The notes below the pieces were generated by a model. That model was not told the origin of the DNA. It did no database searches and saw only the letters and a list, made by a program, of their open reading frames with translations. A program made the position numbers and the translations under genes. This document shows, one piece after another, positions 5,190-61,400 of a stretch of DNA of 64,000 nucleotides. Every line of letters starts with the position of its first letter. Position 1 is the stretch's first letter. Origin of the DNA: Narcine bancroftii (lineage: Eukaryota); assembly GCF_036971445.1 (NCBI RefSeq), contig NC_091469.1, forward strand, positions 268,460,001 through 268,524,000, in the 5' to 3' direction.

Positions 5190-5364
5190 TGTCATGATAA
5201 TGAATATGTATGAGATGTACCGGAAGTCACGTGGTATGAGAGAGAGATAAGAGCACAAGCAGGAGAACAAAGGAAACTAGAAAATAAAGACACTGAGAAG
5301 TTTACCTGATTAAACTTGTGTTCAATGTTTTATTAACTTCACATTTCGGGCCACAAATGTGACA
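5190..5364 (+). repeat. 3' LTR of gypsy element
   Basis: Copy of 614-788, preceded by the PPT and followed by TSD CGTAT. Confidence 0.97.
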
Positions 5365-37100: not shown

Positions 37101-40100
37101 GGAGTCCTTAAATGAATCTTTGAATTTGTTGTTGAGGAGTCTGAAGGCGGAGGGGGAGCAACTGTTTCTGAACCTGGTGATACGAGTCTTGTGGCACCTT
37201 TGCCTCTTTCCTAATGGCAGCAGTGAGACAGAATGTGTGCAGGGTGGTGTGGGTCCTTGATGACTGCTATTACTCTCTGATGGCAGAATTCCCCATATAT
37301 GTTCTCAGTGGTGGGGGAGAGTTTTGCCTATGATGTCCTGAACTGTGTCCATGGCCTATTTGCAGGGCTTTATGCTTGGGGGTATTGGTGTCCCTATACT
37401 GACCGTGATGCAACTGGTCAGCATACTTTCCACCACACCTCTGCAGAAATTTGCCAGGGTTTCTGATGTCATACCAACCCTCCTCAAATTCCTGAAGAAG
37501 TAGTGTGTTGGGTCCAGGAAAGATCCTCTGAGATAGTGACTCCCAAGAACTTAAATTTGCTCATCCTCACCACCTCTGCTTGCCCAGTGATCACTGGATC
37601 ATGTACCTCTGGTTTTCCCTTCCTGAAGTCAACAATCAACTCTTTAGTTTTGGTAACATTGAGTGCAAGGTTGTTGTTGGTGCACCATTTAGCCAAGTCT
37701 TCAATCTCCCTCCTGTATGCTGGCCTATTGCCCCTTTTAATACAACCCACTACTATGGAATCAGCAAATTTGTAGATGGTGGTGTTATAATTAATTTCTC
37801 TCCCCCCAAGTTTACCAATAAAGTCTCACTAATGTACTTAATAATATACTAAAAAAGACTCTTATCAGGCAGGGATAGGGAGACACTTTGGAAGAGTCAC
37901 CCCAGTGACAAATGACATCGATCATCTCTTCATCCTGGATGCCAGTACTTAATTCAAACACAACTTTATTGAAACTTTATTCAAAAGCTACTTTGGGCTG
38001 GTCACAACTGGGGTGCTTGCAGGCTGAACGTTTGTTTCCAAGGGTTTTGTGTGGCTTTGGAGAACGTTTATTTAAAACTTTATTTAAATTCTTATTTATC
38101 TCAAATTCTATTTATTTATTTATTATTTTTGCTGGTTGTTTGAGATTCTGGTTGAATGAGTAACAGATAATGGGGATTTTACTGTATAACCTAAGGGAAA
38201 TCCCCATCCTGTTTATCTACATGAACACAAATTGTACCTTCAAGTCGATTGTCATCTGATTGTACAAGTATAACCCTATGAAACAGCGTTCTCTGGTCCT
38301 CGGTGCAAAAGATGCAGACACACAACCAGGCATAACGTACATACAGACAAACAATACATAAGCAGTGCAAGTATTTCACCTATACAAATAAATCAATAAG
38401 AATTGCTTTTTGTACATATGGGAGTCTCGGATGGCTAGTGGTTGTTCGGCATTCTGACTGCCAGTGGCAGGAGCTGTTCCTCAGCCTGGTGAAGCTGGCT
38501 CTGATATTCCTGTATCTCTTTCCAGACAGGAGCAGCTGAAATATGCTGTATGCAGGGTGGGAAGGGGTGCTCAATGATTCTCATTGATTTTGTGCATCTT
38601 GGCTTAAAGATTGAACATACAAGGAAAACAAATGATTGTCAAATTTTAATTACTTGTTTTATTTTGACTAGTTGCTCCAGAAATTACTGGATGTGAGGAC
38701 CGTAAAATCATGAAACATTTAGAAGAAGAAGTAGTCACTTGGAACATTAGCTCATTTCGACCTTGTGAGATTATAATTTGGTTGTATGTAAAGAGGAAGG
38801 AGAAGCATGCGAAAAGTCCAATTTTTAATTGGAGTGCCAAAAATCGTACTGAGAAAGCAAATGGATTAAAGGTCAAAGGTGATCATGAAAACGTGAAACT
38901 ACTTGTGAATTCAGATTGGAAAGATGAATCATTTAAGCCTTTGGATCCTGAATTTGAAACTAATTCAGAAGGAATTTCCAGAGTCAAGATCAGTGTTAAA
39001 ATATATCCTGATGTTATCACTGATGATGAGGCTGAATTAATTATAGAAGTTCAACATCAAGCTCTCAAGCAACCAATAACAAAGTCTTTAACATTGGATG
39101 TTAAAGGAGGTAAATTACAATCATTTACTATGACCATTAATCTCTTTATTGATTTCTTTCTGAAAATCTATGCTTAACATCTATAGTTTATGACATTGAT
39201 GTGGATGTTTGTGTTAAATACAGTTCTGACATGGTGAACTAAACATTGAGAAATATTAAGACAGTAAAAATAATATTTTCTTGCTCGTGTGGTTGTCAAT
39301 TAGCGTGATTACATTATTTTCTTTTTCTTTCCCAAAGTTCCACCTAAGGTTTTAAACATTTTGGTGCCACCTCACGTCAATCACAATGAATTTGTGGCTT
39401 TGGCTTGTACAATCACTGGATTTAAGCCAAGCCCACTAAGTATTATCTGGCAACAGAAGAGAAAGAACAGTGATTTGGAAGAAATTGTTCGGCTGGAGAG
39501 GGACAACAGAACAATCTTTTTCAGTGGCACAAGGGAAAAATATAATGAAAAACATTACATCTGTGAAGCACAGCATGATGACAAAACTTGGAGCAAAACC
39601 AGTGTATTGGTTATTGTGCCAGATATAAACCAAGACCAGGACTCGCAGTACCTCTGTCAGATACAGCACCCCTGCACTAACAGTAAACAAGAGCAAGAAA
39701 TAATGCTAAAAATTGCAGGTATGTATACTTTTATCTAAGCCCTTGCATAGATAGAAGACACAGAATTAGAGGATACTCCAAAGAGCGCAGTGTCTTGAAT
39801 GGCATATTTTACTAATTTCTGTCTGAAGGCAGAAATATGTTTACAAAGAAAAGGATTTAAGAACATGCAAAATAAATCAATTAATAGGATATGATTATAC
39901 TGAAGTTAAAAAAATAATGTAATTTATAGTTTTATTTTTTATCTTTTTTCCATAGTTTTCAAAACCATATGTGATAACTTTTCTGGCTGTTGGCCATGTA
40001 AAAGCAAAATAGTTTCACCAATCTGCTTTGTTTTCTCTTTCAGCCACACCTAAACTGGGCACTATAAAATGTAGCTCAGAAAAAATAATTCTAAATGTAC

Positions 40101-43100
40101 CCATGACTTTAAGCTGCTCAATATTTGGATTTTACCCCAAAGAAATCTTAGTAACTTGGCTCAAAAATGGTAAAAACATGGACGAATGCCCAACTGATAA
40201 AAAAATAATTGAACAAGATGGACTCTATGACTTGACAAGTAATTTGAAGGTTGTCCCCACTAACTCTACACTAAAATATACGTGCCAAGTAGAACATGTG
40301 AGCCTTTCGAAACCTATAAAGACTGATTGGGTACCTGGTAAAATGAGTAAGTAACAAACTTTCAATTTTGAACTTCTGAAAAAATAAGTAGCTGGTAATG
40401 AATGGATATCTGATGAAAGTGTTTAGAATTTCCTTTTTTTTGGAGAATTTTATTTATCGTTTGCATCAATACAAATACTAATTCAATAAAGATAATATCT
40501 TATAGCAACATAATACAAAATTTTTATCTATTTTCTCCCCCACCCCCTCCCTCCTAGCCCCCAAAGAAAAGAAAGAGAGAAAAACACCTAAATCTATACT
40601 TTGAATATTTATTTTACTATAGTTATTTTTTTCTAACTATTAATTGTTAACTGAGAGGACTGGGTGATGTGGAGAATGTAGATGGACTTTTATTCACGAA
40701 ATCCATATACGTTTCCCAGATCTTATAAAAACTCCCAATATGATTCCTTAAACTATAAGTAATTTTTTCTAATGGTATACAGTTTTTCATTTCAGTGTTC
40801 CGTTTATCTACTTTTACACAGAACTAAACCGAATGTAAAAAAAAAGTCCTTTTTACATCAAAAGCATTTATCAGAATAATTGGAGTTAAGTCTATTTAAT
40901 TTATGTAGTGTATAGTATAGTTGATGTAGAAAATTGTTTTGAACCATTTCATATCTGGCATTAATCGTATTTGTAACACTCGCTTGACCATATTTCTTCT
41001 TGAATTTGTAGACTTAAATCTTTTTCCCACCTTTGTTTAGATTTATATAAATCCTTTTTTCTCCCATAGTATCTTGCAATTTTATATACATAATAATCAT
41101 ATAACAATTACAGTATGGAAACAGGCCATCTCGGCCCCTCTGGTCTGTACTGACCTAAGTGAACTCCTCTAGTCCCACCAACCTGCATTTTGCCCATAAC
41201 CCTCCAATTCCCTCTCATCCACATACCTATCCAACCTTTTCTTAAATTACAAAATTGACTTTGCAGTGACCACCTCTTCCAAAAGGTCATTCCACTCAGC
41301 CACCACTCTCTGAGGGAAGAAGTTTCCTCTTGTATTACTTCTAAACTTTTACCCCCAACTCTTAATTTGTGACCTCTTGTTAGTAATAAATTTCTTAATA
41401 AATGTACCTGTAATTAAATGTTCAAATTGACTTTGCTCTGCAAGTCTTAGATTCGTACCTAATTTCCTTTTTAAATAAGATTTGTTGACAATATGCAAAA
41501 ATTGTGTTATTTTGCATGTCATATCCACAGGAAGCCCTTCACTGACACTGAGAGAGCATACAAAATCCTTATGGACAGCGCTAGATTCAAAGCTGAGTCT
41601 CTGGTACTGCAGTAATGTTATGCTATCTGCAATACTAACAATGCAGTGTGGAAATTATATCCATATAACAATTTTCAGTACAGAAACAGGCCATATTGGC
41701 CCTTCTCGTCTGCACCGATTTACGTGAAAGTCCACTAGTTCCACCTATCCACTTCCATGTCCATAACCCTCCAATCCCCTCACATCCATGTACTCCTCTT
41801 CTTCTTTGGCTTGGCTTCGCGGACGAAGATTTATGGAGGGGGTAAAAGTCCACGTCAGCTGCAGGCTCGATTGTGGCTGACAAGTCCGATGCGGGACAGG
41901 CAGACACGGTTGCAGCGGTTGCAGGGGAAAATTGGTTGGTTGGGGTTGGGTGTTGGGTTTTTCCTCCTTTGTCTTTTGTCAGTGAGGTGGGCTCTGCGGT
42001 CTTCTTCAAAGGAGGTTGCTGCCCGCCGAACTGTGAGGCGCCAAGATGCATGATTTGAGGCGAGATCAGCCCACTGGCGGTGGTCAATGTGGCAGGCACC
42101 AAGAGATTTCTTTAGGCAGTCCTTGTACCTCTTCTTTGGTGCACCTCTGTCACGGTGGCCAGTGGAGAGCTCGCCATATAACACGATCTTGGGAAGGCGA
42201 TGGTCCTCCATTCTGGAGACGTGACCCACCCAGCGCAGCTGGATCTTCAGCAGCGTGGAGTCGATGCTGTCGGCCGCTGCCATCTCGAGTACTTCGATGT
42301 TAGGGATGAAGTCGCTCCAATGAATTTTGAGGATGGAGCGGAGACAACGCTGGTGGAAGCGTTCTAGGAGCCGTAGGTGATGCCGGTAGAGGACCCATGA
42401 TTCGGAGCCGAACAGGTGTGTGGGTATGACAACGGCTCTGTATACGCTTATCTTTGTGAGGTTTTTCAGTTGGTTGTTTTTCCAGACTCTTTTATGTAGT
42501 CTTCCAAAGGCGCTATTTACCTTGGAGAGTCTGTTGTCTATCTCGTTGTCGATCCTTGCATCTGATGAAATGGTGCAGCCGAGATAGGTAAACTGGTTGA
42601 CCGTTTTGAGTTTTGTGTGCCCGATGGAGATGTGGGGGGGCTGGTAGTCATGGTGGGGAGCTGGCTGATGGAGGACCTCAGTTTTCTTCAGGCTGAATTC
42701 CAGGCCAAACATTTTGGCAGTTTCCGCAAAACAGGACGTCAAGCGCTGAAGAGCTGGCTCTGAATGGGCAACTAAAGCGGCATCATCTGCAAAGAGTAGT
42801 TCACGGACAAGTTGCTCTTGTGTCTTGGTGTGAGCTTGCAGGCGCCTCAGATTGAAGAGACTGCCATCCATGCGGTACCGGATATAAACAGCGTCTTCAT
42901 TGTTGAGGTCTTTCATGGCTTGTTTCAACATCATGCTGAAGAAGATTGAAAAGAGGGTTGGTGCGAGAACACAGCCTTGCTTCACGCCCTTGTTAATGGA
43001 GAAGGGTTCAGAGAGCTCATTGCTGTATCTGACCCGACCTTGTTGGTTTTCGTGCAGTTGGATAATCATGTTGAGGAACTTTGGGGGGCATCCGATGCGC

Positions 43101-46100
43101 TCTAGTATTTGCCAAAGCCCTTTCCTGCTCACGGTGTCGAAGGCTTTGGTGAGGTCAACAAAGGTGATGTAGAGTCCTTTGTTTTGTTCTCTGCACTTTT
43201 CTTGGAGCTGTCTGAGGGCAAAGACCATGTCAGTAGTTCCTCTGTTTGTGCGAAAGCCGCACTGTGATTCTGGGAGAATATTCTCGGCGACACTAGGTAT
43301 TATTCTATTTAGGAGAATCCTAGCGAAGATTTTGCCTGCAATGGAGAGCAGCGTGATTCCCCTGTAGTTTGAGCAGTCTGATTTCTCGCCTTTGTTTTTG
43401 TACAGGGTGATGATGATGGCATCACGAAGGTCCTGAGGCAGTTTTCCTTGGTCCCAACAAAGCTTGAAAAACTCATGCAGTTTGGCATGCAGAGTTTTGC
43501 CGCCAGCCTTCCAGACCTCTGGGGGGGATTCCATCCCTACCTGCTGCTTTGCCACTTTTCAGTTGTTCGATTGCCTTATATGTCTCATCCTGCTCTAGCC
43601 TTAGGGGCTGTTGAGGGAGCTGGAGCAGGGCGGAATCTTGGACTGAGCGGTTGGCACTGAAAAGAGATTGGAAGTGTTCTGACCATCGGATGAGGATGGA
43701 GATCTTGTCGCTGAGGAGGACTTTGCCGTCTGAGCTGTGCAGCGGGCTTTGGACTTGGGGTGAGGGGCCGTACACAGCCTTTAGAGCCTCATAGAAACCC
43801 CTGAAGTCGCCAATGTCCACACTGAGTTGGGTTCGCTTGGCGAGGCTAGTCCACCACTCATTTTGGATCTCCTGGAGTTTTCGCTGAAGATGGCTGCATG
43901 CGCGACGGAAGGCTTGTTCCTTCTCGGGACAGGACGGCTTTGTAAGGTGAGCCTGGTAGGCAGCTCGCTTCTTTGCCAGCAGCTCCTGGATTTCCTGGCT
44001 GTTATCGTCGAACCAGTCCTTGTTTTTCCTGGAGGAGAAGCCCAGTACCTCTTCAGTGGATTGCAGTATGGTAGTCTTCATCTGATCCCAGAGGGTTTCA
44101 GGGGACGAGTCCGTGAGGCGGATTGCATCGTGTAAGTTAAAACATCATGAGATGGGAATGTGTAAGGAGTTACCCTGTACAGGGCTGTAACAAGATGTGA
44201 ATGCATCCTTGTACTTACAAGATAAGAGAGACATTGATGGATTGAGAGGCAGGAAGCTAGCAGGGAAAGGATAGCAACAGTTTTAGTCATTGGACAAGTA
44301 ATGATATGATGATGTTCTAAGCACGTATCCAAGGGTATAAAAAATCACCATTTTGCTGATAACGGCAGAATGCATTCTCCGACTAACATGGTTAGTCGCA
44401 AGTGTTACAATCCGGTAATAAAGAACAAAGAACCCTGATTTCGACTCAGTCTGGTGTTTGTCTCACTCATTCATGAACAAAGCAGACCTAACAATTTGGT
44501 GACCCCGACGTGATGGGTGAGTGAACACTGGACGACGGTTTCTGTTTTTTCTGACAATCATCTCAGCCGGCTGATAAAAAGGTCCAGAGAAGCCTGTTTT
44601 AACAAAATTCTCTTTTTTTTTTAAAATCTTTATGATTGTCAGTAAGAACTGGAGATCGGACAAATTAGACGACCACAATTGAAGGTCGCATGCCAGGATT
44701 GTAACACGTAAGTGATTACAGACAAGATAAAAGTCCTTAAGGTGTTTGAATGACATTTATTAAGTGCTTCGCAAGAAACTACTAGAGTTTAAAAGTCTTT
44801 ATTGTGTCGTTGCAAAGTCCAATAGAGTGAGAAGGTGGTCTATAAACAATTGAGGACCTGAGTTTTCTGCCCTAAACTGGTTATTAAGAGGAGAAATCTC
44901 CCACGTGAAGGTTGGGCTTTGAAAGAAAACAAAGGTTCAGGCTTATTGGCCTCAATTGTATCTGAGAGACTGACTTATAAATGTCCGGTAGGTATGATAA
45001 TGTCTGTACACTTGAGAAGTTAAGAATTTATTTCCCCAATTCGCCGTGGTGGAATACCACAGCAGACACTAGAGACCTTGAGACAACAAAAAAAGTACTC
45101 AGGGACGCCTGCCTGGTGAACAAGAACGACGACAGAAGGCTGCGACAGCTGTGTCCGGATCAGGTAGGAGATATTAATGAAAAAGTTGACAAACTCCTAA
45201 GAGACACCCAGTTTATTCGAAATACTTTTGATAAGTTAAATGAGGGTATTCCCAACATCACCAAGGAGATAAAGTTACGTAAATTCATAGATTGGTACAG
45301 GGAAACAGGACAAAAGTATAGCCCAAATATTTGGTTTTCTAGTTGTAATTTAACTTTCAGACCCCTTTGGGAAAACAGAGAGTGGAAAACGAGCAATCAG
45401 AGTATACAGGACAGTCTGAAGTCAATTGGAGGACAAGACTTAGAGACTGTTCCTTTAAAAGATATTAGTCATCCAGCTTGCAAGGAGACATTTTTAAAAG
45501 CAATTTTCGTTGACATAGATCCCCTAAATGGACAAGAACCTAAATTAAAACAGGCATTAGAAAGCGGTCCCGCAGCTTTGGCTGTACAGTTGCCTGCTAA
45601 GACTTTTGACCAAGTTATTAAGGAAATTAATCAGGAATTAGAGGAGCGAAATACCAGTAATGCGGCATTGGAAAAACAAAAAATGCTCCAAAAATGTGTA
45701 GACCGCTGGAGGAAGAGGGGTTGGTTACCCGGGGGCACTGAGATGTTCCTGACAGGTGAGGGAAACAAAATTCTAAAGCGTAGTGTCTTAGATAAGCTGG
45801 AAGAAACAAAACACAGAAGGGAAAGGAAAAGTGCCTGTTTCCAGTTTCCAGCCACGAAGTGTCCGGGTTTGCTCTCTCCCTCCCTCCTTTCACCCTCCCC
45901 TCTCTCTCTTCTCTCCCCTCTCTCTCTCTTCTCCCCCCCCTCCTCTCTCACCCACTCCCCCTCCCAATCCCAATCTGTGGCGGTGCTGCCCTGAAATCCC
46001 CAGGTTGGGCAGGGCAGAGAAATACAATTTGGTTTTAATTTTGTGCCCACAATTCCAGCTCCGCATCAAATGGGATCCTGTTTTATCCTCTCTCCCTCCC

Positions 46101-46436: not shown

Positions 46437-49400
46437 TCTCTGGATGTATATGATGTCATGTATGTACTCTGACAATAAATCATTTATAAGTGAGTCTTAT
46501 ACAATTAAACAAAACGGGACACAGAAAACAAAATCTTTAATCGCGAGTCAGCAAAAAAGAGGGTGAGAGACAAGGAGATGCAGTACCGCGATGTCCTAGC
46601 TATATTCGAAGAATTTGGTCTCCCTGATAACCCACCTATTATGGCCCCTGTAGAAATAGCTTGTAGACCCCCGCCCTATGCATATGTGGAGTCACAAGGT
46701 GCCCCTGGCACCCCAGATGGGATCCTGGAGTCACGTCCCTTATATCCAGATATTGAGACACTGGGGTGTGACAAGAACCGCGGGAATAGGGACACATCAG
46801 ACGAGGTACAGGCCCCTTTAATAAAAATAGAAGGGGGAGTAATAGATGTAGAGACCCCTCTGGAGTCCAAGAAAATAGAAAAGGAGTTAGAGATACAGAA
46901 ATGGAACATGAAAAAGGTTCAGGATAACATTAAAAACTTAAACAGAGATATTAATGTGCTGGGGCAGATCAGTGAGGATCAAAAAGAATTAATGGTAGGT
47001 GTATTGAAGGAAGTGGAAAAGATAACTACAACACTGTCAGGAGAAATTAAAGCTGAAGGAATGGTAATAGGAGTAAAGGACGAAAAGTGTAGTACAGATG
47101 AGGAAACGAGATACGATCCACCATGGGAGGAAAGTAAAAGGAAAAGACTCGGGAGGGAGAAAAATAGACATGCCTATCTGGACATAGTTAGGACAAAAGA
47201 GAAAGATGTGAAACAACTAAACTATGGCTGAAAAGATTATCTTAGAGATGAACGTGACCAATATACCTTTGACCCTGAGACATTGGAAGCTGATAGGGAC
47301 AGTGACAGTGACGAAGAAGAGTCAGAACAAGGTGGGATAAATAAATGCATGCCAAGAGTAAAGAAGGAGCAGAAATCCCCAAAATTGAGATATCAATGCC
47401 CATTACTGATCACGGGACGGGGAACTCAAAAATATGTACCCTGGTCACGAATGGACTTAGAGAGTTTAATGAAAAAACTACCTCCGTTGAGTAATGGGGC
47501 TAGTCCATGGATTTCTTGTTTTGAGCGAGAAACCTGCCAAGAACAATTAGCACTCGCAGATGTCAGAACTATCATGATAAGATTAAAGGCAGAAGGGGCC
47601 CTGAAGCAAATAGAGAGAATTGTAAGAAGCAGTAAATTGGGGGATGAAATAGAATTTAACCCACTTCGGAATAAATTTTGGGAAGCACTTAGAGAAACAT
47701 TTCCTACACCCTATAGTTTGGATGCCTTGGTAACCCTTCAACTAAAGGAAGGAGAGACTGCACACGAGTATTTCACTCGAGCATGGGACTTATGGGAAAC
47801 AGGGACTGGAGAAAGACCCGACCACAGCCCCTTAGGAAGGGCTCACTTTCGTAATGGGATAATAAACGGACTACCTGCTACGGTTCAAGCAAAATTAAGG
47901 GACATTGTGGGAGTAGAGACAATGTCAGAGGATTTGTGGAAAAGACACCTGACACATGCAATCAAACGACATCGTCAATCAGAGCATGCTAGGTCAGAAA
48001 GTGCGTCCCAGAAGGAGGTGGACAAGACAACCGATAAATTGGTGAGAGCCATAGAACATATAGGGGTTAAATTAGCGGCCCAACAGATAGTCCCACAGGT
48101 CATGGGGCCAGTGATAAATCCGGGACCCCAAGTAAGAAATGGTTGGGAAAGACAGCTAGGTACAATGTATAGAGGGGAACATGCAGTATGCTGGTACTGC
48201 CAAAATCCTGGACACTACCAGCGGAACTGTCCGGAGGCTGGGAGAGCAAGGGGAAAAAGATTACCCTCTATTAGAGGCTATCGGGGAAGAGGAGGAAACT
48301 TAAGAGGACAAGCAAGGGGTAGGGGTGGACACATTGATGGGCCCCAGAGAATCGGGGGGTGGCAGAGTGATCAACAAGTCCAGGCACCTCAGTGTAATGA
48401 CTATATTGAGGAAGGTGCTGAATTTGATTATTGAAGGTGCCCTGGAGAATCAAAAATCACGCCTCCCTGGGAGCCACCAAAAATTTGGGGGACGGTAAAT
48501 GGAGAAAAAATTGAATTTATGGTTGACACAGGGGCAGCAGTTACGACAGTGATTAAAAAACCCCCAGGGAGCACATTTTCGGGCAAAACATTATCTACAA
48601 TAGGATTCTCCGGGATAAGGGAAACACAGCCCTATACAGATAACATCGACATGACATTTGGACGACAAAGGGTTAAAACGCCTGTCCTGGTTGTGCCAAG
48701 TTGCCCCATTAATTTATTAGCAAGGGACATTCTTACCAAACTAGGAATAACCATACAATGTTCTGAGAAGGGCCTTCGGTTAACATACCCAGGGGATACA
48801 ATAAGAAGGGGAGGACAGTTTATAGTAATGACCCCATCTAACGCTTCAGAAGACTCTGTGGAGGTTAGTATTTTCTGGAGTCGGCTACTGTATGATGAAC
48901 CAGGCCCAGGGCTGGTTAAACAGTTTTTTGAGTGGAGGGCCAGTATTCCTCGGTATGGGGATTACCATTCTCCACTAGATCCTATGCATGTTACATTAAA
49001 CTACACCATCCACCCGGACCAGGAATATGAGGAGAGGTGGGACTCTCTAAAAGAAGGGAAGACAGAAACGATACATTGTCCATTTATCTTTGTAGGTAAG
49101 GAGGGAATAGCTGCTATGGTTGTCATGACAGAAGAACAAATGGAGTGGTTCTGCTTAGGAGTAGAAAGTGTGCCTCATGTGACCTTGGGTATTGCCAAAG
49201 ATCATCACGCTCGACAGCTGGGTCCGATGGTAAAGGAAGCGATAGGGTGTGAATACAGGCAGACAGAAATCCCGGGATATTCCACCTCGGAGGGAGGAAA
49301 ATTTGTCAGACTGAATATTGAAGCATGGGACCAGGTAGTGAATGAGAAAGTAGAAAGAGACCGAGCCATAGAAGGAGAAAATATTGATCACAGAGACTCA

Positions 49401-52400
49401 GACAAATATCTTTCTAATCTGAGTCCACATATATGGACAACGGGGCCCTATGATGTGGGAGTAATGAAAGGAGAGGTATTTCTAGAATTGGCCAACCCCG
49501 GGCAGAAACCAATATGGAGAAAACAATACCGCTTGTCGCCCAGTCAGGAGGAGGGTATTAAAGGAACGATAGAAGGGTTAATGGAGTCAGGGGTTTTAAG
49601 GGCAGCACCTGACAGTATGTGGAACACGCCCATCATGCCTGTTCCCAAACCGGGTAGAAAAGACTGGAGGATGGTACACGACCTCCGGGAGATTAACTTG
49701 GCTACCAAGACCATCGGGAGACCAGTCCCAGACCCATATGTAGCACTTAGGGCTCTGAGTCCGGAGCACGAATACTATACTGTCATTGATCTGGCAAACG
49801 CATTCTTCTGCTTGAAATTAGCTGAGGAATGCCAAGACTGGTTCACTTTCACTTACCAAGCACATCGGTACACATACACTAGATTACCTCAGGGTTATAA
49901 GGATAGTCCAGGACTGTTCAATCAGGCCCTTAGCGAATCCTAATGAAATTAAAGCTCCCGGAAGATGTTACACTGATTCAGTATGTAGACGACCTACTAT
50001 TAGCAGGGAAAACGCCACATGAGTGCCTGACAGGGACAGCAGTTTTACTCAAGGGGTTAGGCGAGGCTGGATTTAAAGTAAAAAGGTCGAAATGTCAGAT
50101 CGGAAGGAGGGTGGTAACTTTCCTAGGAAGACTCGTGGGTAAAAACGGTACGGCCATGTCTGAGGCACATAGAGAAAAGATACTAGGGTATCGAAAACCT
50201 ACTACAGTACAGGTCATGCTTCCCCGGGCTCTGAGCCTAATTAAGGTGGCGGGCCATTCCCCAGATAACACAAAGGAAGGGAAGGGAAACACGGCGGCTG
50301 ACAGGGCAGCCAAACAGGTTACTGGTTATCATGAACATATACAGGGGATGATTTTGAGGTCCCATAACAAAAAAAATGAATCTGAAACTAAGGAGACTTG
50401 TAGCAGATTGAATGACTACACAGATGAGAAGGGAGAGGGACCCCCACCGAATATTGAGCACCTAATAGAAATACAGGAAAAAGCTAGCCCAAGTGAGAAA
50501 GAGGAATGGATGAAACGCGGTGCCACTCGACAGGAGATCAGCTATGAAAATCAGACAGTACATGTTTGGCGCTCCCCTATAGGTACGATAGTTGCCCCTC
50601 GTCAATTACTCCCACTATTATTTGAAGAAGCTCATGGGCCGACTCACATTAGCGCCACCAAAACTTATAATACGCTTAAACAACATTGGTGGAATCCCCA
50701 CTTACGCGAGCACATTGACAACTTTAGAGCTGAATGTACTATCTGCAACGGGGATAACCAAAGGATCACCTTACCCCACCCGCTTTTACGATTTCCAGTA
50801 CCGACAGCCCCGTGGAAAGAGATCTATATTGACTATACAGATATGGGTACTGACCTTAGGACAAAGGAGGGTTACCGATATCTTTTAGTGGCAGTAGATA
50901 GGTTCTCACGATGGGTGGAGGCTATTCCAACAAAGAAAGAAGATGCGGATAGTGTAATAGGCTGGCTAACGCGAGAGTTAATACCCCGCTATGGAGTCCC
51001 CAGCAGGATATGCTCTGATAATGGGTCTCATTTTAAGAATGAGCTGATCCGACAGGTTGAAGAATACCTAGGGATCAAACATCGTTTTGGTAGTGTCTAT
51101 AGGCCTGAGAGCCAGGGGTTAGTAGAAAGGGCAAACAGAATGATAAAATCTAAATTAGGGAAAGTTTTAGGGGGGACCAGGTTGAATTGGGTTGAGGCAT
51201 TGCCATTAGTACTGATGTCTATGCGACAAGAGAAGGCCAAAGATACCTTCCTGTCACCGCATGAGATTCTAACGGGTTGACCCATGCCCGGTCCAAAGAC
51301 TGATCCAGCATGGGTTAAGTTGTGGGAAGAAAGGGAAGTGGAACTAGATCATTATATGCAGATGCTGGGTAATATGGTTGCTTTAGTTTCACAACAGGTG
51401 GCGAATGCTAGTAAGGAGAACCCGGACACTGAAGGAGTTTCAGTAAAGGAGGGAGACCTGGTGTATATCCGTAAACCAGGTCTTTGCAGATGATGCCGCT
51501 TTAGTTGCCCATTCAGAGCCAGCTCTTCAGCGCTTGACGTCCTGCTTTGCGGAAACTGCCAAAATGTTTGGCCTGGAAGTCAGCCTGAAGAAAACTGAGG
51601 TCCTCCATCAGCCAGCTCCCCACCATGACTACCAGCCCCCCCACATCTCCATCGGGCACACAAAACTCAAAACGGTCAACCAGTTTACCTATCTCGGCTG
51701 CACCATTTCATCAGATGCAAGGATCGACAATGAGATAGACAACAGACTCGCCAAGGCAAATAGCGCCTTTGGAAGACTACACAAAAGAGTCTGGAAAAAC
51801 AACCAACTGAAAAACCTCACAAAGATAAGCGTATACAGAGCCGTTGTCATACCCACACTCCTGTTCGGCTCCGAATCATGGGTCCTCTACCGGCACCACC
51901 TACGGCTCCTAGAACGCTTCCACCAGCGTTGTCTCCGCTCCATCCTCAACATCCATTGGAGCGCTCACACCCCTAACGTCGAGGTACTCGAGATGGCAGA
52001 GGTCGACAGCATCGAGTCCACGCTGCTGAAGATCCAGCTGCGCTGGATGGGTCACGTCTCCAGAATGGAGGACCATCGCCTTCCCAAGATCGTATTATAT
52101 GGCGAGCTCTCCACTGGCCACCGTGACAGAGGTGCACCAAAGAAAAGGTACAAGGACTGCCTAAAGAAATCTCTTGGTGCCTGCCACATTGACCACCGCC
52201 AGTGGCCTGATAACGCCTCAAACCGTGCATCTTGGCGCCTCACAGTTTGGCGGGCAGCAGCCTCCTTTGAAGAAGACCGCAGAGCCCACCTCACTGACAA
52301 AAGGCAAAGGAGGAAAAACCCAACACCCAACCCCAACCAACCAATTTTCCCTTGCAACCGCTGCAATCGTGTCTGCCTGTCCCGCATCGGACTGGTCAGC

Positions 52401-55400
52401 CACAAACGAGCCTGCAGCTGACGTGGACTTTTTACCCCCTCCATAAATCTTCGTCCGCGAAGCCAAGCCAAAGAAAAGGTAAAGTACATTGGACTGAATT
52501 TAGGTGGTCTGGACCATACACTGTTACCGCCGTAACAGATAGGTCGGTAAGAATTGACAAACCAGGGGATCATAATTGGCATCATTTTGCCTACTGTTCC
52601 AAGGCAAAACAGCACGTAGCCAGCCTTGATAGAATTGATGAGACTCATGCAGACGATACCGGGGGCCCTATGGGCAGTACTACTAATGGGATGCCAGATA
52701 AGTCAGCAGAATAGCTCGGATTCCTGCGGGGCCAAAGTTATTCTAAAGGTAGACAAAGACAGGGATAACACCTTCCAGTTCGATCTATGCAGTATAATAG
52801 CGTGTGGTAAGAATGAGGCGTCCTGGAGAGGATATGATGTTTACATGTGTGCCTTTCAAATAGGATATCCTAAATGGGGTCTACATGTCTGTCCGTCTTG
52901 GGGTGAGGTTTGGTGGTGGACAGGACCCGACACTAGATGGATAAGAAAACCCCTTAACAAAGGGTCCAGCAAACCTTATTATAATTTTTTCACTAAAATC
53001 TCCCTGATACGTGGTGCTGTGACCTATTCAATGAAAGGAGAGAATCCCCTGATTTTGACAGTAAAGGCGGGGCTGCGCAACCCGTGGAATATGAAGGGAT
53101 GGAGCTCTAAGACATGCGAGGGGGGCACAGGGAGAGAACATGGTGTCGGAGACCTCTTCTATCTAATGATTGGAGTGTCTATTAATGGAAAAGATCCTTG
53201 GGGAGTGGTGAGGTTCGACTTACTAACATACACAAAGGTCATAATTAAACCCACTTCGAAAGAGGGGGAAGTGAGAAAATTCGACAGTACGAAGATGTCC
53301 AGGGGAGAGAAGATAGCAATTGAGACAGGTATTGATGAGTCAAACTCCTGGATAGATCAGATGGGTAAATATGCGGACCAAGCAGGCTATGGGAACTGCT
53401 GGGTCTGTGCCCGAGGAAGGCCATTATTACGGATGAGCAGATCAATTTTTGAGGAGACAGATGCTATGGACTGCGCCTTGAACCTAATGTCTGATATGGG
53501 AACAGACGTTTCCCATAGCTCCGGCTAATGTAGCTCCCCCTGTCTTTAGATCCACAGGCATAACTAATGTTACTTGTTTTGCCAACAACAACACAGCAGC
53601 GCACGTTTTCCATGTGGGTTGGCTGCCCAGCGACTCGTGCAGGACTCATGTTGATCTCTCACATAGCAGTAGTGCAACCCGCTTGACCCAGGCTAGGGCG
53701 GATATTTGGTGGTTTTGTGGAGGAAGAGTGCTGTACAACTGGCTCCCCGCTAACTGGGATGGTCGGTGTGCTCTAGTAACCCTTAATGCGCCAGTGCTGA
53801 TTGTCAAAAGGCAGGAGGGAGACGAGGATTCCCTAGAATTGCACCACACAGAGAGTTGGCTGTGGAGAAAAAGGAGGAGTGTTGGACTCTTGGGGCCGGG
53901 AGGAAGGAACCCTGATGGGGTATGGATTGATGCCATTGGCCAAGCCCGGAATATTCCGGACGAATTTAAATTAGCCGATGAGATTGCAGCTGGGTTTGAA
54001 AGCTTTCCTGTTTTTAGTGCAATTTTTCCCATCACTGTAAATAAGAATGTTAATAGGATCAACCTTATTCACTATAATGTCCAGCGCCTTGCAAATTTGA
54101 CCAGGGACGTTGTTGAGGCAATACATCAACAACTGTCAGAAACTTCCCTTATGACACTTCAAAATAGGATAGCGATTGATATGGTCCTGGCAGAGAAAGG
54201 TGGAGTGTGTGCTATGTTTGGAGATCTATGCTGCACTTCTATCTCTAATAACACAGGGCCAGATGGATCACTCACTAAGGGGTTAACGAAACTTAGGGCA
54301 TTGGCGAAAGAATTAAAAGCCCAGTCTGGAGTCTCCAATCCTGTTTTATCCTGGTTACAGGGAGTGTTTGGGAGATGGAGCACATTGTTAGGACAACTTT
54401 TGCTGGTTTTGTTCATTTCTGTATCAATTTTTATCACTTGTGGCTGTTGTTGTATTCCATGCATTCGAACGCTGGTCACGAGGACCATAGAGAGAGCCTT
54501 TGCTGACCGTGATGAACTGCCTCCGAAATATCAAGCTGTGCAGGCTGTGGAGCAAGACTATCTCACATTACAGGAGGCGGAGAAAGTTGCTGAGATCGAT
54601 CTGGAGTCTGAAGGGGAATGTGATGGGAAGGAGGGATTGTGAATTAGATTGTTACACATATAATTTTAACCTTGCTTGTAACCTAAATATTATAACCTTG
54701 ATTGTAGAACAAATATTATAACATTGATTGTAACACAAACATTATTAATCAGATTGTAGAACAAGTATTATGAATTAGATTGTAGACCATATGTTAACTT
54801 GGGAATTTACTAATGTACGGGGGGGTTAGCTAGTTTTTTGCTTGGGGGCAAATGGGATGAAACTTGTAAACGGGCAATGGGATCGGGGTGACGGATGGGG
54901 GATGTACGCAAAGGAGGGTTGGGGGAGCCCTCGCCCACCAGCCGAACTAACCTGTGAACAGAACCCGTATAGAGCTTGGCAATAATAGGCGAACTAATGT
55001 AACGCGGTGGTAGCATAGTCAGGGCGAGATTGTCCTCTAAAGAGGACAAAGGAGGGATTGTAAGGTAAAACATCATGAGATGGGAATGTGTAAGGAGTTA
55101 CCCTGTACAGGGCTGTAACAAGATGTGAATGCATCCTTGTACTTACAAGATAAGAGAGACATTGATGGATTGAGAGGCAGGAAGCTAGCAGGGAAAGGAT
55201 AGCAACAGTTTTAGTCATTGGACAAGTAATGATATGATGATGTTCTAAGCACGTATCCAAGGGTATAAAAAATCACCATTTTGCTGATAACAGCAGAATG
55301 CATTCTCCGACTAACATGGTTAGTCGCAAGTGTTACAATCCGGTAATAAAGAACAAAGAGCCCTGATTTCGACTCAGTCTGGTGTTTGTCTCACTCACTC

Positions 55401-58400
55401 ATGAACAAAGCAGACCTAACAATTGTCGAGCTTTGCTTTGAGGTTTGCCTGGAAGTTTCCTCTCACTTCGTCTGACTGCAGGTTTCCAACATTGAACCTC
55501 TTTCTAGGGGCTCTACTGTTCCTGGGGTTTGGCTTGAAGTGAAGGTTGAGCTTGCAGCGAACCAGCCGGTGGTCAGTGTGACATTCCGTGCTGGGCATGA
55601 CCCTGGTGTGGAGCACATCTCGTTTGTCTCTTTCTCTCACCAGGACGTAGTCCAGGAGGTGCCAGTGTTTGGATCGGGGATGCATCCAGGTAGTCTTCAG
55701 GCTGTCCCTCTGCTGAAAAAGGGTGTTTGTAATGACAAGCCGCTGTTCTGCGCAGAGCTCCAACAGGAGGCGCCCATTCTCGTTGCACTTGCCGACACCA
55801 TGCTTGCCCAGGATTCCTGGCCAGGTTTCTGAGTCTTTGCCGACGCGAGCGTTGAAGTTGCCAAGGATGACAACCTTGTCGGCTGTAGGGGTGTGTTGAA
55901 TGAGGTTGTGCAGGTCAGTGTAGAACTTGTCCTTTTCTGCTGGTTCTGCCTGGAGGGTTGGAGCATAGACACTGATGAGGGTGATGCGACGCTTGTTTTG
56001 AAGGGGGAGTCGCATGGACATGATCCGGTCCGAGTGGCCTGTCGGGAGGTTTTCGAGTTTGGAGGCAATGGAGTTCTTGACCAAGAAGCCTACACCAGAG
56101 AGGCGTCATTCATCCAAAGGCTTGCCAGACCAGTAGAGTGTGTAGAGTGTGTAGCCTGCGCCGCGTTCTTGGAGGCTGTCTACATCTGCCAGGCGGACTT
56201 CACTGAGAGCGGCTATGTCAATGTCAAGTCTGAGGAGTTCATGTGCAATGAGGGTAGACCGACGTTCAGGTCGGTGGCTGTCAGCCTTGTCTAGCATGGT
56301 TCTGATGTTCCAGCATGCTAGCTTGAGTTTGTGAGCATCTTTTGAGGGGGAGGACGTGGAGGGGGAGGACGTGGACCTGTCCTCGGGCCTGCGCAAAGGA
56401 GCTTTTAGGTGGAGTGCAGTGTGCGCAGTACTGGCCCCACCCTTTACACCCATGCTTCGTGTGCCGTGGCCAAGCAAGCTGGGACGTGGCAGCGATGTCC
56501 TTGGGTCGTAGGTTTTATATCGGAGTTGCCTTCTCCTATGCAGTTTTCTTACCAGGGCTGGAGGGGTCTGCCTCCCCTCCTAGGTCGGCCCATACTGCCT
56601 GGACTGGGGCCGCCGCCTCCAACTCTCTGCCCGGACCGGGGCCTCCAAAATACTCCTCTAACCTCCTCTTAAATGATAGAACTGACCCTGCCACAACTTC
56701 TTCCTCAGGTAGATCATTCCACTCAGCCACCACTCTCTGAGTGAAGAAGCATCCTCTTATATTACTCCTAAAGTTTTGACCTCTAACCCTTAACTTATGA
56801 CCCCTTGTTCCAATCTCACCTACACTTAGGGGAAAGTGCCTATTCACATCTACTCTATCTATTCCCTTCATAATTTTAAATACCTCTCAACCTTCTACGC
56901 TCCAGTTAATAAAGTCCTGGTCGACTCACTCTTCCTCTGTATTCAAGATTATATGAAAATCTTGTTCTCTTTCGAGAATAAAGTGACGTGGTTTTCATCG
57001 TCTTCTGATGAATGATGCAGTATATGGGGGGGGGGGGGGAGGAGGAAAGAATCATGACAAATAACAAAACAATTAAGAACCATTATGAGAAAGAAAGAAA
57101 GTACTTTTCATTTTCTATTCATGACAGTCAATTGCCTGTCGCCATTGAATATCTATTGCCATTTTTGTCCTTGCTGTTTATTAACCAGAGATAATGTGGA
57201 ATTTGTACATATCAGGATTACACCAACAGCAATGTATTAAATGAACACTTGATCTGTTTTGATGAATTTTGAGGGTAAAATAGTGGTCAAGACATCGGGA
57301 GAGCTATCTGTTCTTCAGATAAAGTGCAATCAAACTTTTGATGTTTACATGAACAAGTGGTCCAGAATCTTTTTAAGGCTTCAGAGTTCTTTAAACATTA
57401 TTTTAAGGTCCTAATGTAAATTACTTCAAGTCCAACATTGTGAATATAATTCAGGCTTCATTTCAGGTACAGAAGAATTTCTGAATGTAGTTGGGTGGAA
57501 ATATTTGTGCCCAACTCTATATTTGGCCAGTGAAAAAATCCATGTACGAAACTTTAAAGCTGCAGGCCTGACCTTTGAGTTAACTAATCTATGGCAGGGA
57601 TAAATTGCTAAAATCTATCTCTGGCTTAGACCTTGGGAGATGAATTGTCGCGTGCGTGCGTGCGTGCGTGCGTAAAACCTCAACTATGAACTGTTCTATA
57701 GAATTTAAAAAAGAGAAAGGATAGCGTCTCATATTTTCTGAGCTTGACCACTTAAAAATCAGAACCAGAATTTATTGTCATGAACAAGTCATGAAGTTTG
57801 GTGTTTGTCAGCAGCGTCATAGAGCAAACGTACATATTATAACCATCTTACAACATTACTAAAATAAAATAATACTAGTGTACGAAAAGTAAGGTAGTAC
57901 CTTTGGTTCATTGATTATTCCAGAATCTGATGGCAGCAGGGAAGAAGCTGTCCTTGTGCCGCTGAGTGCTCGTATTTAGGCTCCTGTATTTTTTCCCCGA
58001 TGGTAGCAGAGTGAAGAGGGCCTGGCCTGAGTGGTGGGGGTCTTTTGAGGATAGAGGCTGCTTTTTTAAGACACTGCCTCATGACTAGTGTCAATTTTCG
58101 TTTAAATTGTCATGTTCTTTAAGTTATGCATTTAGTTGAACTTTCTTTTTTTCTCTCCCTTTTCTCTGTCCAGGTTCATTGCCGACGCTCACAGCAATTG
58201 AGGCAAATCCACCTTGCCCGGAACTAGGACATCCTTTAATACTTTCCTGCAAAGCTTCTGGATTCTATCCAGAAACAAATCAAGTACTCTGGTTCAAAGA
58301 ATTTGATAAAATCACAGATGGAATTGAAACAGGAAGAAATGTTTTAGATACAGCCAGTGGTTTGTACTCACGATCATCCCAGTGGAGATTCAAACCAACT

Positions 58401-61400
58401 GTTAATGATCACGGAAAAGAGTACAAAATGCAATTCCTTCATTTTGAAACTTCAAACAAGCCTCTCACAGCCAGTTATGTTTTGAAATTGAAAGGTAAGC
58501 CCTGTTTCCACAAAAGCGTAGGACCAAAAGAACAAAAATGGAAGCAGGAAAGGCCCTTCATGGGTGGCCTGACATTCTGTAAGAGCACAGCTGAACTTTT
58601 ACCTCAGTTCCATATTCTTGCCCTCGCCCACATCCATTAGATACTAAAGAGTTCTCAATCTCTGTCTCGAATATAAGCAGCCTTCACAGCCACCTTTATT
58701 CTCATCATTTTTCAGCCAGTTGAAATAACAATTTCATAATCGGCCTGGCCAGCCCCATAAGATTTATTTTTGTATTTTAGTGGGATCTGTTATAAAGTGA
58801 GTAGCATAAAGTTGTGAGGTGTCTGAAATATCACCAGAAGCAAAACTTGAGCCATTGATTTTGGATTTTATTTCATCTTAAATATTCATTACTGTAAATG
58901 ACTGGTTTCATGAATTTCAACAGGAATTCCCTATGTTGAAGACATAAAATGGAAACCACAGAAAGCAATGTATGGCACAGAACTTGCTCTCACCTGTGAA
59001 GTAAATAACTTTATTCCAAGAGACATCAGAACACAATGGCAAAGAGGAAAAATTCCAATAACCAAAGGAGTTGAAATTGACGGTCCTAAGATGAACCAAA
59101 ATCAATGTTTTCAATTGGTGTCCTGCTTGTATGTAAAGACAACTGCTCTGGATTTTGATGAAGACATTTCCTTTTGTGTGTCCCATTCTAAATTATCTGA
59201 GATAATAATTAAAAAGGCATCTTTAAAACTTCAAGGTACGTTTCACAAAATCTCCTTGGCTTTTTACATTTCCCATCCCACCCAAAGATTTGAATATGTT
59301 CACTTTATATAGGTACACAATCCTTTATCTGGACATCTAAAATCCAGAAGCTCAAAAATCTGGCAAATGGGGAGAGAGAAGGCAGCGCGAGTCAGGCAGG
59401 CGAGGGGGAGAGACCAGAAATATGAGTCAGGCGGGTGAGAGACCGGCAGTGCGAGTCGGGAGGGCAAGGGGAAGAGACTGGATGCGCGAGTCGCTTGGGC
59501 GAGAGACCGGCAGGACAAGTCGGGCAGGTGAGAGACTGGCAATGCGAGGGGGAGAGACTGGATGTGCGAGTTGCACGGGCGAGAGACCGGCAGGGCAAGT
59601 CGGGCGGGCAAGTGGGGGGGAAGACTGGCAGCGCGAGTCAGGTGGGCGAGGGGGTATGGAAGGGGGTGGGGTTGGATATGGCATCACAATTTGGTGGGCT
59701 TAAATCTGGCTTTCCAACATCCGGGAAAAATCCACAATTCAGAACACACTGTCCCCCAAGGGTTCCGGATAAAGGATTGAGTACCTATATTTGCACGTGG
59801 CACATCATGATTGATTGTTGAGTGAGAAAATCACTGATTTATGTCCCACTTTTGCAATAAATTGCCAAAAAAGTTGGAATTAGTTAAGTTTATTCATAAA
59901 ACTGCAACATAAAGTTATTAAAATGGAGCATATATGGTTTAAATTTAAAATGTTTAAATTATTGATAGACAGCACGGTAACAGGCCATTTTGGCCCAAGA
60001 GCCTGCGCTGCCCAATAACACCCAATTAACACAGCGCCTTGTACGCTTCAAACAGTGGGAGAAAACCGGAGTCCCTGGGGTGGGGGGGGGGGGGGTGGAA
60101 CTATGTAGACATGGGGAAAATGCACCAACTCCTTACAGACAGCACGGGATTCGTACCCCTGTCCATATGCTGGCACAGTAACACTAAATAATTGCACTAA
60201 CTGCAGAGTTAACCGTGCTGCCTAGTAAAAGTTTAAGTAAATTGTAAAAAAAAAAGGATTTAAAATAAATGCATCTTTTAAATATTAATCAGAATAAAAT
60301 TACATAAAAGATCAAAATATTTTAATTGATCAGATTCAGAATTGATATTTATAGTGGTCTGTCACCTTTGCTACAAGGTGGGATACTTTGAATAAAGTGA
60401 TGAACTGGATATCTATAAAAATATTCCAGTGATTCAAACAAGTAATTTTCAAAATGGTTCATGTGCTTTTAACTTGTGTCTATTGCAAACAATTTTTTTT
60501 TCATGTTGTTTAAAATTAATTATCTTGATTCACTGGCTAAACATTCAACTTTTTTTTTCTCAGCTCTTGCTCCTGACATGTCTGATATTACAAGTAATCC
60601 AAAGATACTTAAGGTTAACCAGAATGCAGAATTCAGTGTCTCATTGACACATTATGTTCCTGATAAACTGCAAATAAAGTGGTTTAAAAATGAAAAGCTT
60701 TATGAAGATGTGGTTAAGAGCCCTCCTAAGATTGCAGATGATGGTTTATTTTCATCAGTTACAAGCTTAACATTTATGACAACAGAAAATGATCATGAAA
60801 ATATCATCAAATGTGAGGTGTTTCATGAAAAGACAAAACGAAGACAAGAAAAACTTTTCAAATTACTTTTTGAAGGTGAATCTTGTTCGATAAATGTTGA
60901 GTTTAGCATGACACATTTTATTTAAGTTTTAACTGCATTGATGATTTCTTTAAACTTAAAAATATTAATTTAAATGTTTCACATCAAAGCTTCTCATTGA
61001 GTAAACTAGTTATTTACTGACGCGGAGAATAGATCATTTTGATGACTTCATTTGTTTAAAATCTGATGAGGTGAGATACTTAACCTTTCAACTGCTGATT
61101 TGATTTGACTAATGTCCGGCATAACTTATATCCTGTTTTATCCTACAGATGGTGGAGAAATTAAACCGGTTGCCAGTTTCGACAGTAAAGGTAAATTGTT
61201 CATTTTGAGAAGTTCCAGTTTTGTATATGTTCACTTAAATCTTTTGTCGCGTGCGTGAGATTTTAGACCCATGTATTACCATTTGAAATGGCATCTGTGA
61301 GTTGCCCTATGCTGCCTGCCAGCCTTCTTCATAGCTCAGCTAATCCATTGTCTTCATTACTTTAAAACAAAAAAAGGGTGGTAATGATGTGATAATTTTC

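Follow-up and report, generated by a model that had tools for sequence, protein, structure and literature searches.

We found that the Pol polyprotein of an endogenous retrovirus (ERV) of the ray Narcine bancroftii contains a conserved two-histidine (2H) phosphoesterase domain, with a predicted CNPase-like fold, between the protease and the reverse transcriptase (RT). Within the window, the 64,000-nucleotide stretch of DNA that was analysed, the pro-pol frame (48435–49943) encodes protease, insert and RT in that order. Two HxT motifs, PMHVTL (His codon 48987) and VPHVTL (His codon 49176), lie 63 residues apart in this frame, exactly where a preliminary description of the sequence had placed them. 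That description had also counted about 190 extra residues. With the protease motif NLLARDIL ending at residue 100 and alignment to MLV RT beginning at residue 326, ~200 residues separate protease motif and RT, but ~30 of these are a normal protease tail and the true insert is ~170 residues long (142–310, or 48858–49364, by the model).

The motif pair alone proves little, since a bare HxT/S pair 50–100 residues apart arose in 8.8% of 20,000 shuffles of the 193-residue stretch, and the main support comes from conservation. With its hydrophobic context, a pattern picked after the motifs had been seen, the pair arose in 2 of 20,000 shuffles. A full HMMER scan recovered 196 proteins at E ≤ 0.001, far more than the 1 and 6 relatives returned by word-index searches, and conservation was counted over the best 150 of the 196. 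Among these, His50 was kept in 128/131 rows and His113 in 139/146, while both histidines were kept in 120 of the 127 rows covering both columns and both full HxT/S motifs in 109/127. The two histidines and the T/S residues were among the best-kept positions at 25–40% overall identity. Mean pairwise identity across 32 rows was 36% for the 2H domain, 35% for the protease and 53% for the RT, so that the 2H domain and the protease are conserved to about the same degree. Retroviral Pol domains (Pfam) were found in 29 of 32 long relatives scanned, and the other three had no Pfam match. In two relatives (P0027 and P0084) the domain is matched by two stretches each; P0084 lacks a Pfam Pol domain. Of 20 relative clusters looked up, 13 were named, 12 from teleosts and one from a ray; a separate search added three more teleosts, and a public protein among the relatives, 99% identical, was labelled Narcine bancroftii.

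Sequence comparison with known enzymes gave weaker signals. A phmmer search of the domain against PDB sequences returned nothing under E 0.7, and the domain profile reached CNPase only at E 1.5–1.9, with an SSB protein at 0.16. The Pfam CNPase family was matched by 1 of 88 members (E 0.011), and Pfam matches for the window domain fell below the cut-off. The profile of the relatives matched the host CNPase exon with a probability of 89% and a score of 39.3 (best of 100 shuffles, 16.4); local hhalign stopped short of the region of helix α7, and global hhalign misaligned it. By Atlas features, tRNA-ligase cyclic phosphodiesterase clusters, likewise a cyclic-phosphate enzyme class, ranked first (0.96–0.97; PF08302 on 31–63% of members), at an Atlas recognition value of 2071, under the Atlas threshold.

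AlphaFold modeling from an 88-row alignment predicted a two-lobed 2H fold with high confidence (pLDDT 95.0, pTM 0.89) and the HxT motifs on β-strands 50–56 and 113–119; a single-sequence model was set aside (pLDDT 44.7). All 42 Foldseek matches listed from the PDB were CNPase or goldfish RICH (best E 2.5 × 10−7; identity 14–20%). VIA-align against 48,161 chains ranked mouse CNPase first (Z 16.3, rmsd 3.8, 168 aligned residues, model 4–173 on 160–378), with the next match at 8.8, and the other viral 2H enzymes scored lower (NS2 7.6, Acb1 7.5, VP3 6.9, penguinpox cGAMP phosphodiesterase 6.4). Ranks 1–21 (Z 5.6–16.3) are proteins that we take, in part by their titles, to be of 2H type. Fungal Trl1 CPD structures were absent among the VIA-align matches listed, so kinship to the Trl1 CPD may still hold. 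AlphaFold and Foldseek thus bear out the 2H assignment of the preliminary description, with CNPase nearest, as does the survey of relatives for its two motifs (both histidines in 120/127 rows); the construct it had proposed (residues 110–275 of ORF 48519) would clip the last predicted β-strand, which reaches ~residue 282.

The resemblance to CNPase extends beyond the HxT strands. A predicted helix (124–135; 49209–49244) directly follows the second HxT strand, in the place of α7 by motif spacing and alignment range. In the available text of PMC4643303, α7 is described as conserved in vertebrate CNPases, absent from other 2H enzymes and linked to the 2′-phosphate outcome. Gln at His+13 and Gly at His+15 have the same spacing in the host ray’s own CNPase exon, and this Gly (49221) was kept in 127/138 relatives. 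At the place of Phe235, equated by motif spacing, an aromatic residue occurred in 109/132 rows (Tyr at 49002 in the window copy). The first strand carries an aromatic pair (Tyr/Phe in 90/104 rows, Trp in 87/104) that may match CNPase Tyr168. The place of Val321 is Lys or Arg in 114/141 rows and that of Arg307 mostly Val or Ala, both located by motif spacing rather than superposition; because these two places differ from CNPase, the substrate may have shifted.

The provirus that carries the domain is an SSSV/ZFERV-type ERV of the ray, young and broken. It is full-length with 363-bp LTRs and sits inside an RTE LINE (Table 1). gag terminates at a UGA (48432–48434, context UGA-AGG) in the same frame as pro-pol, and among 30 copies examined the anchor could be located in 21 loci, all of which had UGA at the gag end. 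Among solved structures the RT was closest to MLV/XMRV, and env has no long tail beyond the membrane segment. The 337-residue ORF matched no Pfam family, and its best Atlas score was 0.89, under the 0.9 lead threshold.

Table 1 Features of the provirus in the window, in order along the forward strand
Feature	Position	Strand	Remarks
4-bp target-site copy, 5′ side	44127–44130		Abuts 5′ LTR
5′ LTR (TG...CA)	44131–44493	+	4 mismatches in 366 aligned columns against 3′ LTR
Primer-binding site	44497–44514	+	3-base spacer from the CA of the LTR; presumably tRNA-Trp type
337-aa ORF, ATG start, 5′ of gag	44981–45994	+	Candidate accessory gene
gag frame with CCHC knuckle	46509–48434	+	Internal stop 47229–47231 in window copy
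Retroviral aspartic protease	48492–48830	+	DTGA at 48525, NLLARD at 48711; Pfam RVP residues 20–107
Predicted CNPase-like 2H phosphoesterase domain	48858–49364	+	HVT at 48987 and 49176
Reverse transcriptase	49410–50220	+	Stop 49941–49943 with frame change; YVDD in next frame
RNase H tail, then integrase	50221–51460	+	Integrase stop at 51278–51280
RTE-type LINE fragment inside provirus, near pol end	51468–52489	+	95.6% to copy at 41788–42807
env, two frames (52620–53528, 53488–54642)	52620–54642	+	TLV_coat match
3′ LTR	55059–55421	+	Polypurine tract precedes it
Target-site copy, 3′ side	55422–55425		One mismatch against 5′ copy

The window copy is a dead fossil that cannot make a full Pol: gag contains a stop, RT is broken by a stop and a change of frame, RNase H is mostly gone, a LINE fragment interrupts the provirus and env is split. 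An internal deletion near 50220 removes most of RNase H and is common to 12 of the 30 copies examined, the window copy included. Common internal deletions of pol, at least two in number (near 50220; 50040–50298), mark sub-families among these 30 copies, and such sub-families spread without a full pol. In a genome search, 150 of 1573 candidates were scored and all were 98–100% identical over the 2H domain (at least 150 copies), with 13 of the 150 in open frames of at least 1400 residues, which indicates that the provirus family expanded recently. Since the 30 copies were picked by domain score, their intact motifs (30/30) are uninformative on selection. Immunoglobulin C1-like exons flank the provirus (40013–40354, 58140–58640 and 58914–59312), which seems to sit within an intron of a host gene with several Ig domains. 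Elsewhere in the window, a 98% direct repeat (614–788 and 5190–5364) around a purine-rich 4.5-kb stretch possibly represents the LTRs of a second element.

The domain may have been captured from a host CNPase, given the profile match to the host exon and CNPase as the best structural match, although Atlas features put tRNA-ligase clusters first. Trees of the 2H domain and RT (32 rows, several of them near-identical) had 6 of 28 splits in common, too few to establish a single ancient capture; all three strong 2H splits occurred in the RT tree, three of six strong RT splits occurred in the 2H tree, and the Spearman correlation was 0.57, inflated by duplicates. The best match among viral models (BFVD) was Q2VF30, which we take to be the SSSV polyprotein (TM 0.89, 30% identity). 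Foldseek against BFVD also matched, over 172–180 columns, the Env polyproteins of the walleye viruses WEHV1 (Q9WHI8; TM 0.69, E 1.9 × 10−10) and WDSV (A4GTG3; TM 0.70, E 3.1 × 10−9), in which the fold lies in Env, unlike its place in Pol in the ray provirus, at 17–18% identity. This distribution may reflect a move of the enzyme between Pol and Env or two separate captures. Within the ray Pol, the protease ends in a hydrophobic stretch (48813–48830) that is likely the cleavage site between protease and 2H domain, whereas the junction between 2H domain and RT is charged, of near-constant length and without a hydrophobic, cleavage-like stretch.

Because similarity to CNPase (Z 16.3) far exceeded that to the other viral 2H enzymes (6.4–7.6) and a predicted helix fills the α7 place, 2′,3′-cyclic phosphates are the most likely substrate. 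We consider it moderately likely, judging from the model, that the domain hydrolyses them to 2′-phosphates, both at RNA ends and on free nucleotides. Function does not follow from a shared fold, and the substrates of viral 2H enzymes differ widely (available text of bioRxiv 10.1101/2025.08.21.671373). Three substrates had been put forward at the outset; the predicted structure favors cyclic-phosphate ends, host range disfavors 2-5A, and cGAMP is possible. In intact members, the domain would be made with Gag-Pol by UGA readthrough and then packaged, as expected from retroviral biology; it would be cut from the protease and, to judge from the junctions, probably remain attached to the RT N-terminus. 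Inside the virion, and at any site where it opens, the domain would remove the cyclic-phosphate products of host endoribonucleases on viral RNA.

A tentative, if rather unlikely, purpose for such an activity is the removal of immune signals, namely 2′,3′-cGMP for TLR7 and cyclic-phosphate oligonucleotides for TLR8. RNase T2 and PLD3/4 are described as converting RNA to 2′,3′-cGMP, the TLR7 pocket-1 ligand (available text of PMC11470960), and a CNPase carried in the virion would accompany the RNA from which this ligand arises. TLR7 and a TLR7/8-like neighbor are present as intact frames in the host ray genome. Against an endolysosomal role, an enzyme freed in that compartment would face proteases. 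RNA-end repair for reverse transcription, ranked slightly below immune-signal removal, is a doubtful second purpose, and the Env placement in the walleye viruses suggests that presence in the particle matters more than adjacency to RT. The fullest scenario is that a retrovirus lineage of aquatic vertebrates captured a CNPase and loaded it into the virion, through Pol here and through Env in the walleye viruses, where, during digestion of the viral genome, it would destroy 2′,3′-cGMP and cyclic-phosphate RNA fragments and so disarm TLR7 and TLR8; taken as a whole, we regard it as rather unlikely.

Among other readings, the one that survives best, itself unlikely, is that the domain is a cGAMP nuclease like Acb1 or the avian poxvirus enzyme, destroying 2′3′-cGAMP that comes from the virion or from cGAS sensing reverse-transcribed DNA. 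Phage and avian poxvirus 2H enzymes do so (available text of bioRxiv 10.1101/2025.08.21.671373 and of a 2024 structural-virome preprint), cGAMP can be incorporated into virions (available text of PMC13577500), and STING is present in the host ray. The conserved basic residue at the Val321 place lies beside the cleft, and Acb1 entries appeared among the BFVD matches (E 0.007–0.03). However, structural similarity to Acb1 (Z 7.5) and the penguinpox phosphodiesterase (Z 6.4) was far below that to CNPase, in which α7 is thought to limit substrate size (available text of PMC4643303).

It is very improbable that the domain acts mainly as a non-catalytic module, for instance by decoying host CNP or by extending RT with an RNA-binding part. 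The domain does seem to stay on RT, and host CNP is reported to bind HIV-1 Gag-MA and inhibit particle formation (available text of PMC7471995), but the two histidines and T/S residues are among the best-kept positions, which points to catalysis. Degradation of 2-5A, which would block the OAS–RNase L pathway as coronavirus NS2 and rotavirus VP3 do, is very improbable. NS2 (Z 7.6) and VP3 (Z 6.9) belong to the same superfamily and the host ray has two tandem OAS-family genes (G000:C9:128717215-128773133); against this, a PF06479 search of the ray genome returned three matches at two loci among 13 candidates, all three presumably IRE1-like by motif, which is weak evidence that RNase L is absent. 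Moreover, 12 of the 13 named clusters are teleost, and OAS and RNASEL are reported absent in teleosts (available text of bioRxiv 10.1101/693333), yet the catalytic histidines are still kept; the available text of PMC6307210 and PMC7157566 gave no settling statement on RNase L in fish. A chance motif pair in a spacer, for which the frequency of the bare pair in shuffles and the sub-threshold Pfam matches could be cited, is refuted by the retention of both histidines in relatives, the confident model and the CNPase match at Z 16.3.

The domain type is not new, having been on record since 2002, and the ray copy adds a member. 2H/CNPase domains were noted in fish retroviruses by Mazumder et al. 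2002 and Basta et al. 2009 (cited in the available text of PMC9503650 and PMC4977317, respectively), in agreement with the preliminary description. Our literature search, mostly of main texts outside subscription journals, found no functional study of a retroviral 2H domain. By term search, the available text of PMC8672886 and PMC2684134 held no mention of the domain, and the main text of the 2024 structural-virome preprint gave no match for ‘retrovir’, nor did the search listing for the 2025 viral 2H survey. A small predicted enzyme that folds well and persists in retroviruses of both teleosts and rays would be an extra virion enzyme of retroviruses. If it removes 2′,3′-cGMP, it would represent a new class of immune evasion, a counter-defence directed at what an RNA-sensing Toll-like receptor binds rather than at cGAMP or 2-5A, and would have implications for the antiviral effect of host CNPase. 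Cleavage of cGAMP would make it a retrovirus-encoded cGAS–STING antagonist enzyme, and if only cyclic-phosphate ends are opened, it would be a modest addition to retroviral anatomy.

Compared with known systems, Acb1, the avian poxvirus cGAMP phosphodiesterase, NS2 and VP3 are also viral 2H phosphoesterases with two HxT/S motifs, but their structural similarity to the ray domain is much lower (Z 6.4–7.6) and no sequence similarity to them was found. The catalytic domain of vertebrate CNPase (2xmi, 1woj; RICH 2i3e; PF05881) shares the predicted fold, the two HxT motifs, the aromatic residue at the Phe235 place and the α7-place helix with its Gly, whereas it is ~215 residues long compared with ~170 in the ray domain, is 14–20% identical and differs at the Arg307 and Val321 places. 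Unlike CNPase, the ray domain has neither P-loop domain nor membrane anchor and is embedded in Pol. In SSSV, ZFERV and a toad ERV, as in the ray provirus, gag and pro-pol lie in one frame divided by a UGA, an unusual readthrough signal known from these viruses (UGAAGA in SSSV and UGACGA in ZFERV; available text of PMC13517186). The fish retroviruses in which 2H/CNPase domains were already known are likewise epsilon-like, and the ray carrier is a cartilaginous fish.
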